Source: Pseudomonas phage Pa_AttikonH10
DNA length: 64,000 bases
Strand: one strand, 5' to 3'
Sequence record: PQ741806.1
The notes under the pieces are model-generated. The model worked only from the letters and a program-made list of their open reading frames with translations. It was not told where the DNA came from and ran no database searches. Positions 17,410 to 43,397 of this stretch are shown here, one piece after another (position 1 is the first letter of the stretch; every line of letters starts with the position of its first letter). The position numbers and the translations under genes are program-made.

Positions 17410-17439
17410 AATATACTGTTTAAAATGCTTTAAATACAA
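17410..17439 (-). promoter_or_regulatory. putative sigma70-like promoter, class 1 (TTGTAT-18-TATATTACAA)
   Basis: Minus-strand read: TTGTATttaaagcattttaaacagTATATTacaaatg. Lies between terminator 17455..17475 and the deaminase start. Confidence 0.55.
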
Positions 17440-17454
17440 AAAAATAAAATATAA

Positions 17455-17475
17455 GCCCTCCCGCAATGGGAGGGC
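17455..17475 (-). terminator. hairpin gccctccc-gcaat-gggagggc
   Basis: 8-bp stem downstream of 17489..17923. Confidence 0.6.
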
Positions 17476-17488
17476 ATTATAATAACTA

Positions 17489-17923
17489 TTACAACTTATT
17501 CACCATTTTACTTGGTGCTATAACCCAGTGTAAATTACATTTCATGCTTTTATTTTTAAGAGGTATTCCTGAGATACACACATCCTCTTTAGTTATGCTA
17601 ATTTTAAATAAAGCTTCCCATTTATTAGCTGTGATGATTTCATCAACAGTGTGATGGAATTTAAGTGTGTTATCTAATACTGAAATATAAAAGTCTTTAT
17701 TGGGTTGACCTTTAGTTAAATCAATTATTAACCTATTATTTAATTTAGGTGAAAAAGTTGTTAATGTACCGTCCTCATTATTTTCTGATATGTAAGTACA
17801 ACCAGTAACAACAAAGACATTATCATTTATGGCATTAGTATAAATTACTTTCGATTGTTTAAAAATATTAATTAAGTAAACAATAATTGCTGACAGGATA
17901 AGTGCAATCACTACCTCAGTCAT
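17489..17923 (-). CDS. hypothetical membrane-anchored protein
   Basis: 144 aa. N-terminal TM helix VVIALILSAIIVYLINIF. Confidence 0.55.
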   Translation of the reverse strand: MTEVVIALILSAIIVYLINIFKQSKVIYTNAINDNVFVVTGCTYISENNEDGTLTTFSPKLNNRLIIDLTKGQPNKDFYISVLDNTLKFHHTVDEIITANKWEALFKISITKEDVCISGIPLKNKSMKCNLHWVIAPSKMVNKL

Positions 17924-17925
17924 TA

Positions 17926-18300
17926 CTAACCCCTATTAACAAAGATAAAATAATCTCGTAGTTCACCAGCTAAATCTAATGGTTGATAATTATCACTACC
18001 ATCATCATAAGGGATATAATCAGCACCTGCTTCTACAGCCGCTAAATATTCTTCCTCACCAACTGCTGGAATTAAATGAAACGCTGGGCAATCGTCATTA
18101 TTGCCATCTAGTATATCTAGCATGCCTGTAATGACACTATCTGCTACAGCCCTGTCCCGATCAGCTGGCTCTGTAAATTGATCAAGTTTAGAGTTATTGA
18201 TAGCATTATCACGCATATTGACAACACTACTAATAAATAGTTCTTTAACTTGTTCCTGTGTTACAGGTTTAACATTACCATCGCCTTCAAAATAGATCAT
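17926..18300 (-). CDS. hypothetical protein; paralogue of the C-terminal region of 18345..19031
   Basis: Shares the block G(M/F)(L/I)..LDGN(N/D)..P.F.LIP.V..E..........Y.P with the adjacent gene. Confidence 0.55.
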   Translation of the reverse strand: MIYFEGDGNVKPVTQEQVKELFISSVVNMRDNAINNSKLDQFTEPADRDRAVADSVITGMLDILDGNNDDCPAFHLIPAVGEEEYLAAVEAGADYIPYDDGSDNYQPLDLAGELRDYFIFVNRG

Positions 18301-18344
18301 AATTACATACCTTGTTATCAGTAGCTTATAAATTTATTAGTTCA

Positions 18345-19031
18345 TTAACGCATTATTCGACTGATATCATCAGCTATTTGTGATTGTATCTTTTCCGCTT
18401 TTTCTTTAGCTTTTTCTACTAACATAGCAAGTTGCTCTTGCGTAAAATTACCCGAGTAATACTTAACAGGTTTCTCACCTGCTAAACTAAGGAAATGGTT
18501 CAATAGTGCATGTGGTCCTTTGAAAGGTTCCGTAAATGTCTTAGAAACTTGATAACGTAGATTACCAGAAATATCAACTGCATCACACTTTGCACGGATA
18601 TTATCTTTTAAATTTTCAACTGGGTTTACTGGCCAATAATTCTCACCAATACTTATTAGGTAGTCAATATCCTCTTGAGTAACATTAGGTATAAGTTTGA
18701 ATCCGGGTATATTTGGATCATTGCCATCTAGGCCAGCTGCGATGCTATATATAAATCCATCAAGCATATCTCTGATAGATAGTGCCTTATCTGTATTTTG
18801 AGTATCGGTATACTGTTTATGCCAGTAATTACGTGTGCTTTGAAGCCAATTTACAAAGAGAGAAGTTTGTTCCTCTTTTGTATATTCTCTCGGATCATCT
18901 ACTTTCTCCCATTCTTTTTGTTTATTTATCTTAGGAGTCTTAGTTTTCTTTACAGGTTGTTCAATCGGTGAATCTGAAACCTTTGTTTCAAATCCTATAC
19001 CAACTATAGTTTTATCGGTTGTATTGATCAT
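18345..19031 (-). CDS. hypothetical protein; tandem paralogue of 17926..18300
   Basis: 228-aa ORF. Lys-rich N-terminus. Shared C-terminal domain with the neighbouring gene. Confidence 0.55.
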   Translation of the reverse strand: MINTTDKTIVGIGFETKVSDSPIEQPVKKTKTPKINKQKEWEKVDDPREYTKEEQTSLFVNWLQSTRNYWHKQYTDTQNTDKALSIRDMLDGFIYSIAAGLDGNDPNIPGFKLIPNVTQEDIDYLISIGENYWPVNPVENLKDNIRAKCDAVDISGNLRYQVSKTFTEPFKGPHALLNHFLSLAGEKPVKYYSGNFTQEQLAMLVEKAKEKAEKIQSQIADDISRIMR

Positions 19032-19258
19032 AGAACATGAAACCTTTGTATATAGTTTGGTTTTATGCGTTTAGTAAATTGCGCTGAATGCTCAATGTAA
19101 TAAATGCATTTATCATTAAGTGAATACACTGTATAATAGGTTTTAGCACATATATGTCGTATGCCAATAGTAACACATATTTCCCAACCGATCTTTGTAA
19201 ATACATAACCTAACTGATTAGGCTCTATTTCTAAACATCTTTTGTCGAAGTTAACCAT
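19028..19258 (-). CDS. hypothetical protein
   Basis: 76-aa ORF. Confidence 0.45.
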   Translation of the reverse strand: MVNFDKRCLEIEPNQLGYVFTKIGWEICVTIGIRHICAKTYYTVYSLNDKCIYYIEHSAQFTKRIKPNYIQRFHVL

Positions 19259-19698
19259 TGTGGCTTCCTCGGAATAGTTCGCAAGTACTGAACAATAAGT
19301 CGCGCGAATTCATCCATATCGTCTTCAACTAGAATTAACTCATCCAATGTATACCAGCCATCATCAGTTGTTTCAATTAGATTAGAATCATCTTTGATTT
19401 CTCTATCTAAGATGGCGTATAATCTAGTTGGTCCAAAATCAGGCTCTTCTATAACCCCAAGATGTATCAAAGAATTTCTATTATTAGTATCATCTGTGAT
19501 AGTTGGCTGAACACTAATATTGGAAGTTTCCTCTGGGAAGTTATAACTATCTAAAATAGCAAAATCAGTTAATTGTCTAATAGCCTTTCTAGTGAAATCA
19601 TAAACCTTCACTATGGGATGAATCACATAGGTTAGTTTATCATTAACTAAACGTTGCCTTAAATTAATAAATGCGCAGTTATTCATCGACATACTCAT
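19231..19698 (-). CDS. hypothetical protein
   Basis: 155-aa ORF. Confidence 0.55.
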   Translation of the reverse strand: MSMSMNNCAFINLRQRLVNDKLTYVIHPIVKVYDFTRKAIRQLTDFAILDSYNFPEETSNISVQPTITDDTNNRNSLIHLGVIEEPDFGPTRLYAILDREIKDDSNLIETTDDGWYTLDELILVEDDMDEFARLIVQYLRTIPRKPQWLTSTKDV

Positions 19699-20053
19699 GT
19701 ACCATTTTAATAGTTTTCAAAAATACTTCTTGATTATTACTATCATCTGCTTTTAGAATAACAGGATGACACATAAATTCATTTTCCAATGATACTCGAT
19801 AATATTCATTAATTGTCTGAATGAAATCAAGCGGGGGATAAATAATAATATCCTTATCTGTTTCGGCGTAATTAACTACATTTGGTTCATGTTTAAATTT
19901 GGATTTATTTAATTTATAAACAAAGTATTTTATATCATTTTTATCTACTTGTGATACAAATACAATTCGTTCATACATTGATAAATCAATATCTTTACCA
20001 ATATTGATAGACAGTGGCATACCAATAAATGAGCGTTTAATATTTTCATTCAT
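19679..20053 (-). CDS. hypothetical protein
   Basis: 124-aa ORF downstream of promoter E. Confidence 0.55.
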   Translation of the reverse strand: MNENIKRSFIGMPLSINIGKDIDLSMYERIVFVSQVDKNDIKYFVYKLNKSKFKHEPNVVNYAETDKDIIIYPPLDFIQTINEYYRVSLENEFMCHPVILKADDSNNQEVFLKTIKMVHEYVDE

Positions 20054-20094
20054 TTTTTAATTACCTATTTAATAGTTTAATGTTGTATTAGTGT

Positions 20095-42331: not shown

Positions 42332-42333
42332 TA

Positions 42334-42353
42334 GCCCTCCCCGAAGGGAGGGC
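42334..42353 (-). terminator. hairpin gccctccc-CGAA-gggagggc
   Basis: 8-bp stem with CGAA loop. Confidence 0.6.
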
Positions 42354-42365
42354 TTTATGACAACA

Positions 42366-42596
42366 TTACCGCTTACTCATTATCGCAGCTAGTTCAACTT
42401 TAAATAATGCTTCTTCGACTTTACGAGAAATAGCATTTATTTGAACACGTTTATTATTTTCACGATCTAATGCAATTGTATTTTTTCGTGTACAATAATC
42501 GTGTAAACCCAGTTGTCGCCTAACATAGAAAATAACAATTAATTTCAAAACACGAATATATCTCATAACGCGCTTGAACATTTTATAAATCCTCAA
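42366..42596 (-). CDS. hypothetical protein
   Basis: 76-aa ORF. Confidence 0.45.
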   Translation of the reverse strand: MRIYKMFKRVMRYIRVLKLIVIFYVRRQLGLHDYCTRKNTIALDRENNKRVQINAISRKVEEALFKVELAAIMSKR

Positions 42597-42600
42597 TAAT

Positions 42601-42792
42601 TTAAGGAATTGCTTTTAAAGCTTCTTCGCGTTCAGCTAAAAGCTTATCATATTGTATTTGTAATCGGTTAATTTCCGCACGAGTTAATTTTGTCTTAGCA
42701 TTAGGTTTCAACTTATGGTTAATATCAACGGTAATACCATGGTACCTAAATAGAGCTTCCATTTTGGCTATTTTCTTTTCAATATCATCCAT
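42601..42792 (-). CDS. small coiled-coil protein
   Basis: 63-aa ORF. Confidence 0.45.
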   Translation of the reverse strand: MDDIEKKIAKMEALFRYHGITVDINHKLKPNAKTKLTRAEINRLQIQYDKLLAEREEALKAIP

Positions 42793-42823
42793 AGCTAAAA
42801 TCCAAAAAAAATAATAATGACTA

Positions 42824-42843
42824 AGGGGACCAGAAGGTCCCCT
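42824..42843 (-). terminator. hairpin aggggacc-agaa-ggtcccct
   Basis: 8-bp stem. Confidence 0.55.
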
Positions 42844-42849
42844 ATATCG

Positions 42850-43326
42850 TTAGGCAGTAATAGCGCGGCGGAAGACTGAATCAAACTCTTCCTGGTATGC
42901 TTTAATCAGCTTTGCAGTTTCTTCACAAATGGTATTATTACCATAAAATGCATCTGCAAAAGATTCTTGCTTACGTACTTCACAACCGAATAGCTCAAGA
43001 CCATTTTTTGCTAGCTCAACTTTGAACTTAGCTAATTCGGTCATACCAATTGGTTTGGCCCGCCCTTCTTCGATACCATTTTCTTTTAGTTTAATATTAT
43101 CACATACACTGCAATGACGAACATCTTTTTGTTTGTTCTTACGGAAGTTAGGACTTGATTTAGTTTGTTTTGCAGCAATGTCCATAAAGGTTTCCCTAGA
43201 ATTTTTACGAACCGCAGCTTCATGATTCTTTTTAGCTCGATTTTTCTGTTTCTTCTGAACCGGCTTCGGCTGTACACCCAGCATTGAACCAAGTTCACTC
43301 CAGGAAGAAATAGTATTGCGTGACAT
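42850..43326 (-). CDS. hypothetical protein with basic N-terminal region
   Basis: 158-aa ORF downstream of promoter D. Confidence 0.55.
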   Translation of the reverse strand: MSRNTISSWSELGSMLGVQPKPVQKKQKNRAKKNHEAAVRKNSRETFMDIAAKQTKSSPNFRKNKQKDVRHCSVCDNIKLKENGIEEGRAKPIGMTELAKFKVELAKNGLELFGCEVRKQESFADAFYGNNTICEETAKLIKAYQEEFDSVFRRAITA

Positions 43327-43367
43327 GTATTAGAATCTCCTATATATGTTGATTATATCACATTTGT

Positions 43368-43397
43368 GATATACTGTTTAAAATGCTTTGAATGTAT
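43368..43397 (-). promoter_or_regulatory. putative sigma70-like promoter, class 1 variant (-35 ATACAT; TATATCACAA)
   Basis: Minus-strand read: atacattcaaagcattttaaacagTATATCacaaatg. Shares the class-1 spacer TTTAAACAG. Confidence 0.45.

Follow-up and report, generated by a model that had tools for sequence, protein, structure and literature searches.

Early transcription of the jumbo phage phiKZ is carried out by an injected multisubunit virion RNA polymerase (vRNAP) (PMC8244752, PMC10914365, PMC7598289, PMC13282480, PMC4666361), which reads 28 to 32 AT-rich promoters per genome that are centred near −10 (PMC8244752, PMC10914365). Infection is insensitive to rifampicin and the phiKZ RNA polymerases (RNAPs) have no sigma homologue (PMC7598289, PMC13282480, PMC4666361); these enzymes have been reported not to bind host sigma stably, and host RNAP is reportedly dispensable for both phage development and early transcription. 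The phage's nonvirion RNAP (nvRNAP) does not transcribe an early template in vitro. Transcription starts 6 nt downstream of the promoter element (PMC5312081), and conservation at −10, −20, and −30 of the early promoters has already been noted (PMC11512511). The published phiKZ early promoters (Ceyssens 2014; Wicke 2021, PMC8244752; Putzeys 2024, PMC10914365) are the same elements as those analyzed here and number 28 to 32 per genome, but in the literature searched they make up a single motif and a single temporal class, "a phiKZ consensus early promoter." Here we analyze ten of these promoters in a 64,000-nt stretch of DNA from Pseudomonas phage Pa_AttikonH10 (PQ741806.1; the window), together with their counterparts in phiKZ and related phages, and show that the early promoters form two conserved sequence subclasses with different kinetics.

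A close parallel is the early promoter of the Bacillus phage AR9 vRNAP, AAATATATATTAT-(6N)-G+1, which has the same geometry as that of phiKZ, six bases separating a conserved AT-rich element from the starting G, and is read by the same kind of enzyme (PMC5312081). A "pre-early" subset was seen among the AR9 early transcripts, with kinetics that the authors left unexplained (PMC5312081). AR9 differs from phiKZ in that no promoter subclasses have been reported, the element has another sequence, and the DNA contains uracil. In phage T7, one phage RNAP reads class II and class III promoters, two grades that differ in strength and timing. Under the explanation that we favor below, phiKZ would resemble T7 in having one polymerase and a common core, with a few class-specific positions setting strength and timing. 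T7 differs in having a single-subunit RNAP and a 23-bp promoter, and its timing is also set by DNA entry and lysozyme; the phiKZ classes are interleaved on the genome and are distinguished over a 24-nt upstream block. The middle promoters of phage T4 keep the sigma-70 −10 element and have a MotA box in place of the −35 element, through sigma appropriation by AsiA and MotA. The likeness to phiKZ is a formal one, a common −10-like element with two alternative upstream elements tied to timing. T4 relies on host RNAP with sigma-70; the early genes of phiKZ are reportedly transcribed without host RNAP, and its two promoter classes both work within 2 min.

From position 17000 to 24000, the window matches Pseudomonas phage fnug at 100% identity and phiKZ 240123 to 247120, on the opposite strand, at 99.2%. 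By its sequence, the window is phiKZ-type jumbo phage DNA, the reverse complement of roughly phiKZ 200 to 264 kb, with its minus strand corresponding to the strand that encodes gp186 to gp289 in phiKZ. The initial annotation had named ten sites in two classes, each with a TATATT element and a conserved sequence upstream of it. We found all ten on the minus strand, with the upstream sequences that it had quoted and about 3 nt from where it had placed them (Table 1; sites are named by the 5′ T of the core), and the 18-bp distance that it gave between a TTGxxx hexamer and TATATT is correct. There are 11 copies of the core motif TATATTACA in the window, where 2.95 would be expected (0 of 100 shuffles reached 11), and 9 of these copies are on the minus strand. 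Eight of the ten sites have the exact core, while 43373 (TATATCAC) and 42307 (TACATTAT) deviate from it by one or two mismatches. When the extended patterns were searched with up to three mismatches, the class 1 pattern matched three sites and the class 2 pattern matched four, where shuffles lead one to expect 0; 23764, 6351, and 51090 are looser members of their classes. The region around 17415 is identical to that of phiKZ 246707 at 95 of 99 nt. According to the phiKZ genome annotation and the published time course, the cores are intergenic and lie co-oriented with and directly upstream of early-expressed genes, the first of which rise from ~0.3 to between 20 and 2,300 units by 2 min; neighboring nonearly genes stay below ~10 units or fall. 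The ten sites are known phiKZ early promoters, which the literature assigns to the injected vRNAP.

A scan of the phiKZ genome with an all-site matrix returned 30 sites, and an upstream-only matrix added two with degenerate cores, at 42827 (before gp50.1) and 35876 (before gp43). The resulting 32 early-type promoters, equal to the published phiKZ number, are all on the same strand and all upstream of genes. Exactly ten fall in the region of the window, and therefore none was missed by the initial annotation. By class, the 32 comprise 13 class A promoters (corresponding to class 1) and 19 class B promoters (class 2), the members of one class not being evolutionarily independent of each other. 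The matrices for site discovery and class assignment were built from the sites themselves; the core-only site list and a clustering test are independent of the class labels. In that test, the sites were clustered without supervision into two groups by the 26 columns preceding the core, which separated 13 class A from 17 class B sites with a silhouette of 0.35, compared with 0.03 ± 0.06 in column shuffles, 0 of 1,000 of which reached the observed value. The two classes named in the initial annotation, which share TATATTAC and differ in a conserved upstream block, hold genome-wide.

In short form, TATATTAC is preceded by ..TATTyAAA-N5-TTTAAACAG in class A and by ..AyTAAA(A/T)5-TTTrAGATC in class B. 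The class A block is TATTyAAA-N5-TTTAAA plus a G/C-rich triplet, usually with AAAnGTGA following downstream, and the class B block is AyTAAA(A/T)5-TTTrAGATy. The full consensus sequences are tATTyAAA..atTTTAAAcag-TATATTAC-aaat.TGA for class A and tT..AyTAAAa...atTT.AgATc-TATATTAC-a....Tg for class B. In both classes, the columns of high information content are confined to about −38 to +5, with background levels outside these limits. The promoter sequences have the geometry TATATTAC-N5-TG, which, with the G as +1, puts the core at −14 to −7. Across the phiKZ genome, high-scoring matches to either upstream block always precede the core and none occurs without it. The conserved "spacer" is therefore part of the promoter and not a separate operator, and the distinct factor site that had been proposed over it is more simply read as part of an extended vRNAP promoter. 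We infer that the functional unit is one such promoter of about 43 bp (−38 to +5), made up of TATATTAC, N5-TG, and a 24-nt upstream block; the earlier "spacer" and "−35" are together this upstream block.

The sequence subclass of a promoter predicts the kinetics of its early mRNA. We took timing from the per-gene source data of Fig. 3b in Gerovac et al. 2024 (PMC10914614), an RNA sequencing (RNA-seq) time course with samples every 2 min to 10 min, and scored the first annotated gene downstream of each promoter, which covered 31 of the 32 (the exception lies before gp293.2). These values are mRNA levels, not synthesis rates, and contain some read-through, which is clear for gp283.1, where the signal is mostly read-through because its expression equals that of the upstream gene. 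The time course separated the first genes of the two classes completely, in agreement with the proposal in the initial annotation that the classes are temporally distinct. The 2-min level was 0.22 to 0.41 of the 10-min level for class A (n = 12) and 0.08 to 0.20 for class B (n = 19), with no overlap in either replicate (exact Mann-Whitney P = 1.4e-8 for 31 genes), and the 4-min ranges likewise did not overlap in either replicate. The window sites alone also separate (four class A versus six class B sites; P = 0.0095). Median fractions of the 10-min level at 2, 4, 6, and 8 min were 0.31, 0.66, 0.74, and 0.93 for class A and 0.14, 0.34, 0.53, and 0.85 for class B. At 2 min, the class A level was ~4.5-fold above that of class B (381 versus 85; P = 1e-4), and at 10 min it was ~2-fold above, a weak difference (P = 0.053). 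Increments per 2-min interval were 1, 1.09, 0.31, 0.57, and 0.22 for class A, a constant rate for 4 min that then fades, and 1, 1.65, 1.41, 2.44, and 1.0 for class B, a ramp; the difference between the classes is significant already at 2 to 4 min. Judged by their mRNAs, class A promoters behave as immediate-early promoters and class B promoters as ramping early promoters.

Two simple accounts of these curves were rejected. In phiKZ, the classes alternate within 10 kb (A at 236855, B at 237287, A at 240358, B at 244022, and A at 246707) and keep their kinetics, and the order of DNA entry therefore cannot explain the timing difference. The class B promoter at 26817 to 26860 lies only 432 nt downstream of the class A promoter at 27249 to 27292, and the two give different curves. 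A pure lag model, in which class B is class A shifted by 2 min, is ruled out by the 14% that class B has already reached by 2 min; both classes are transcribed by then, with class B gp68 at 86 units versus 3.6 for its upstream neighbor. The class A genes are small host takeover genes, including those for the ribosome-associated gp105 and gp216 and the gp14 operon. Class B contains the conserved core: chimallin, the nvRNAP subunits gp68, gp71 to gp74, and gp123, and nucleotide metabolism operons. The authors of the time course noted quicker accumulation of the gp14, gp105, and gp216 mRNAs than of the mRNAs for nvRNAP subunits, ChmA, or PhuZ (PMC10914614). Kinetic heterogeneity among early phage transcripts has also been noted elsewhere (the AR9 "pre-early" subset and the early clusters "A" and "B" of Gerovac 2025), and we found no link to promoter sequence in the literature searched.

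In the same data, phiKZ late structural genes (e.g., gp29 to gp30.1 and gp119 to gp120) have their highest normalized counts at 2 min (~90 to 400), after which the counts fall. The pattern suggests late mRNA that came in with the phage lysate and not early transcription, and it sets a background for weak early genes.

Conservation was examined in the whole phiKZ and phiPA3 genomes, 125 kb of 201phi2-1, and 41 kb of Noxifer. In phiPA3, whose chimallin is 48% identical to that of phiKZ, there are 28 sites (14 class A and 14 class B), which stand out as AT-rich islands in a genome of 48% G+C. The 125 kb of 201phi2-1 (chimallin 42% identical) hold 15 sites, 7 A-type and 8 B-type. When the phiKZ and phiPA3 sites were pooled, they grouped by class and not by phage. 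Beside the core, phiKZ, phiPA3, and 201phi2-1 all keep the class B "ATy" triplet, and each has a G/C-rich triplet in class A (CAG, GCC/CCC, and GAG/CGC). The same core lies upstream of the chimallin, gp68, and gp71 homologues, among others, in phiPA3 and 201phi2-1.

Orthologous phiKZ and phiPA3 genes, paired by protein similarity and with an assignable nearest upstream early promoter, had the same class in ~13 of 13 cases; two seeming exceptions vanish once intervening promoters are counted. Class B is kept at chimallin, gp53, gp68, gp71, gp185, gp43, and the gp242 and gp254 operons, and class A is kept at gp6, gp10.1, gp102.1 to gp104, and gp246.1. Three of these cases have their phiKZ-type member in the window: phiPA3 carries a class A promoter at the place orthologous to 23764 (262318, after the gp246 homologue) and class B promoters before its orthologues of gp254 (263172) and gp242 (226538). 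Several orthologues have relocated far along the genome, yet their class is unchanged. The TTTAAA palindrome of class A is kept across phages, as judged by eye. An AGATCT palindrome at the class B junction, considered as a sign of a dimeric protein, was rejected, since it is kept in neither phiPA3 nor 201phi2-1. Noxifer has a drifted core, TATATCAy, and lacks the class B "ATC"; its 41 kb hold too few sites to judge the split.

A 201phi2-1 study by ONT-cappable-seq described an early motif at no more than six promoters and classified that of gp129/130 as "middle." At position 71703 of the 201phi2-1 record, we find a clear class B promoter (GATTTTATTTGAGATT-TATATTAC-TAAAGTG) before gp128/gp129, the nvRNAP beta-subunit genes. 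The motif search in that study may have captured one subclass only, and the subclass rule may explain the partial recovery of early promoters by motif searches in related phages, the 201phi2-1 case among them.

How, then, is the class read? Probably, both versions are read by one injected vRNAP complex, and how fast it initiates and for how long would depend on which upstream block a promoter carries. Its contacts would lie on one side of the DNA helix between about −38 and −7, with the conserved patches about one helical turn apart, a remark that has also been made in the literature for 201phi2-1. The version of the upstream block would then set how fast and how long a promoter fires: class A would already run at its full rate within the first 2 min and flatten off after ~4 min, and class B would start low and ramp over 10 min. 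That both classes are active at 2 min speaks against an absolute requirement for a newly synthesized factor. According to the literature, the phage DNA is enclosed in an early infection vesicle that limits access of newly made proteins; with both classes on by 2 min, a new activator is therefore not required for basal activity.

Several points weigh against a single complex reading both versions. Two discrete alternatives that occupy the same positions, each conserved within its class, would more often be found with two readers. The acceleration of class B suggests a positive input, which is not predicted if the kinetics are purely intrinsic. Differences in mRNA stability between the classes could contribute to the kinetic difference, as could extra promoters or read-through. 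The use of the sites by vRNAP is taken from the literature, and the putative +1 G from the published start distance and the conserved TG.

The main alternative, which we regard as possible but unlikely, is that a common vRNAP catalytic core and the −10-like element serve both classes, with the two upstream blocks bound by two specificity proteins. These could both be delivered by the virion, or one by the virion and one made very early, and they could be alternative subunits resembling sigma or proteins that bind DNA. Early infection vesicles would then contain two regulons, one immediate-early and one delayed-early. The classes are indeed discrete, with correlated differences at −38 to −15 and +2 to +5 and no continuum around one consensus; both versions are kept across three genera and never switched at orthologous genes; and class B synthesis accelerates as class A fades. 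The literature, in which the basis of vRNAP promoter specificity is called unknown, also reports that gp79 and gp176 copurify with vRNAP. Against two readers, pairwise comparison showed that neither gp176 nor gp79 resembles gp68, the specificity subunit of nvRNAP, and that the two do not resemble one another in sequence, so that no candidate protein emerged; both classes are active by 2 min; the vesicle is reported to restrict access for newly made proteins; and T7 classes II and III show that a single enzyme can work with two grades of promoter. A specific form of the proposal, that the injected chimallivirus-type machinery carries two promoter specificity determinants, each reading one −38 to −15 version beside TATATTAC, is likewise tentative.

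A more doubtful account holds that the promoters do not differ in function: two cassette lineages would have spread by duplication and traveled with their genes, and the kinetics would come from the transcripts, through stability, operon length, extra middle promoters before the core genes, or read-through. Recent copies do exist. Sites 26836 and 42307 have in common an identical 57-nt block (within 26817 to 26883 and 42288 to 42354, minus strand) that spans the hairpin and the upstream half of the promoter; its identity stops inside the core, and the flanks are unrelated. About 50 nt are common to site 17415 and phiKZ 70339, and phiKZ 2665 and 4516 have identical leaders. Terminator-promoter cassettes seem to have been copied or homogenized as units. 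The account also fits the weak difference between the classes in 10-min levels (P = 0.053) and the secondary middle-type transcription start site reported for gp54. However, the identity of the recent copies runs no further than the promoter borders, and class conservation is confined to −38 to +5. Class-specific bases survive between phages whose proteins are only 27 to 74% identical, which argues for selection on those bases. The complete separation of 31 genes by class in both replicates, already at 2 to 4 min, and the different curves of promoters 432 nt apart also speak against transcript-based causes.

The reading in the initial annotation, that these are sigma-70 promoters of host RNAP whose classes are set by a phage factor or sigma appropriator over the spacer, as in T4 early and middle transcription, is very improbable and is not supported because the sites are known vRNAP promoters of rifampicin-insensitive early transcription: TATATT/TATTAC does lie at the place of a −10 hexamer relative to the inferred start, and a TTG lies 18 bp upstream in 6 of the 10 window sites, but TTG occurs at that "−35" position in only 8 of the 32 promoters of phiKZ, the conserved bases of the −35-like region are class specific (TATTy or AyTAAA) and not TTGACA, early transcription is resistant to rifampicin and independent of host RNAP in the literature, with no sigma homologues and no stable binding of host sigma, and phages of other Pseudomonas species, as well as phiPA3 with its 48% G+C, have retained these promoters.

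The sites had also been described as lying just downstream of GC-rich terminators. This is the case for eight of the ten, with hairpins of −15 to −26 kcal/mol (Table 1), and not for 6351 and 43373, where the hairpins are weak. Class B promoters abut the preceding hairpin, with 1 to 3 nt to −38, and the terminator tail therefore overlaps the promoter. Class A promoters have a T-rich tract of 10 to 16 nt between hairpin and promoter, which may be the "T-rich motif" reported upstream of early promoters.

Table 1. Early promoters (−38 to +5), the core-only control, and terminator hairpins in the window. Coordinates are window positions; the ratio is the 2-min/10-min mRNA level of the first gene downstream.
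Feature	Position	Strand	Core (5′ T of minus strand last)	Putative +1 G	First downstream gene (homologue)	Ratio	Remarks
Class A early promoter	17396..17439	−	17408-17415	17401	PHIKZ260	0.31	Core TATATTAC
Class A early promoter	23745..23788	−	23757-23764	23750	PHIKZ246.1	0.31	AAAAAGC variant
Class A early promoter	27249..27292	−	27261-27268	27254	PHIKZ241	0.36	
Class A early promoter	43354..43397	−	43366-43373	43359	PHIKZ216	0.27	Variant core TATATCAC
Class B early promoter	6332..6375	−	6344-6351		PHIKZ283.1	0.17	Looser upstream block
Class B early promoter	20081..20124	−	20093-20100		PHIKZ254	0.11	TAAATTTTTTTTGAAATC + core
Class B early promoter	26817..26860	−	26829-26836		PHIKZ242	0.20	
Class B early promoter	35545..35588	−	35557-35564		PHIKZ230.2	0.14	
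Class B early promoter	42288..42331	−	42300-42307		PHIKZ218.1	0.15	Degenerate core TACATTAT
Class B early promoter	51071..51114	−	51083-51090		PHIKZ204	0.19	Loosest member
Core-only control	57799..57806	−	57799-57806		gp198		Exact intergenic TATATTAC, co-oriented with gene, neither upstream block
Terminator hairpin	17450..17475	−					GC-rich; just upstream of promoter 17415
Terminator hairpin	20128..20147	−					
Terminator hairpin	23805..23824	−					
Terminator hairpin	26862..26883	−					
Terminator hairpin	27304..27326	−					
Terminator hairpin	35592..35613	−					
Terminator hairpin	42333..42354	−					
Terminator hairpin	51117..51144	−					

The core-only control leads straight into a terminator hairpin (CCTCTCCTTCGGGAGAGGG), and the downstream gene shows no early accumulation (35, 22, 19, 16, and 21), although the hairpin makes this control ambiguous; this TATATTAC may be a decayed promoter or a chance match. 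Another core match, TATATTACA at 51586 on the plus strand, lies inside the gp203 homologue without promoter context. That gene belongs to a plus-strand block (51387 to 55940) of three virion protein genes, the gp203 to gp201 homologues, which are not expressed early and lie between early operons.

Expression of gp254 follows a sharp fall from the upstream class A operon, and gp218.1 is weak, rising from 24 to 155 units. The mRNA of gp216 is among the most abundant early mRNAs, at 872 units at 2 min. The gp216 homologue (42850 to 43326), behind the variant core, gives ~3,200 units at 10 min, again among the strongest early mRNAs, and the two genes downstream of it (42400 to 42800) stay near 10 units. 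It is a tightly terminated single-gene unit, and its protein has been reported to cosediment with 30S ribosomes.

The early promoter family is known; its division into two subclasses linked to kinetics may be new, and a prior description is possible. We found no account of an immediate-early/delayed-early split of the phiKZ early promoters in the literature searched, which did not include the founding promoter paper (Ceyssens 2014). If the split has already been described or is due to mRNA stability, the finding would be a correct rediscovery of known promoters.

Among nucleus-forming jumbo phages, phiKZ serves as the model, and it is a candidate for therapy; the order in which its host takeover, shell, and polymerase genes are switched on decides whether infection outruns the host defenses. 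A sequence rule that predicts which early genes are fast and which ramp gives a direct handle on promoter recognition by vRNAP, and for phage engineering it offers two graded early promoters in place of one "consensus." If there were indeed two specificity determinants, the first ten minutes of infection would be a two-step program encoded in promoter sequence and conserved in at least three phage genera, in which host takeover genes, such as those for ribosome binders, would come first, followed by the nucleus shell and the second RNA polymerase.

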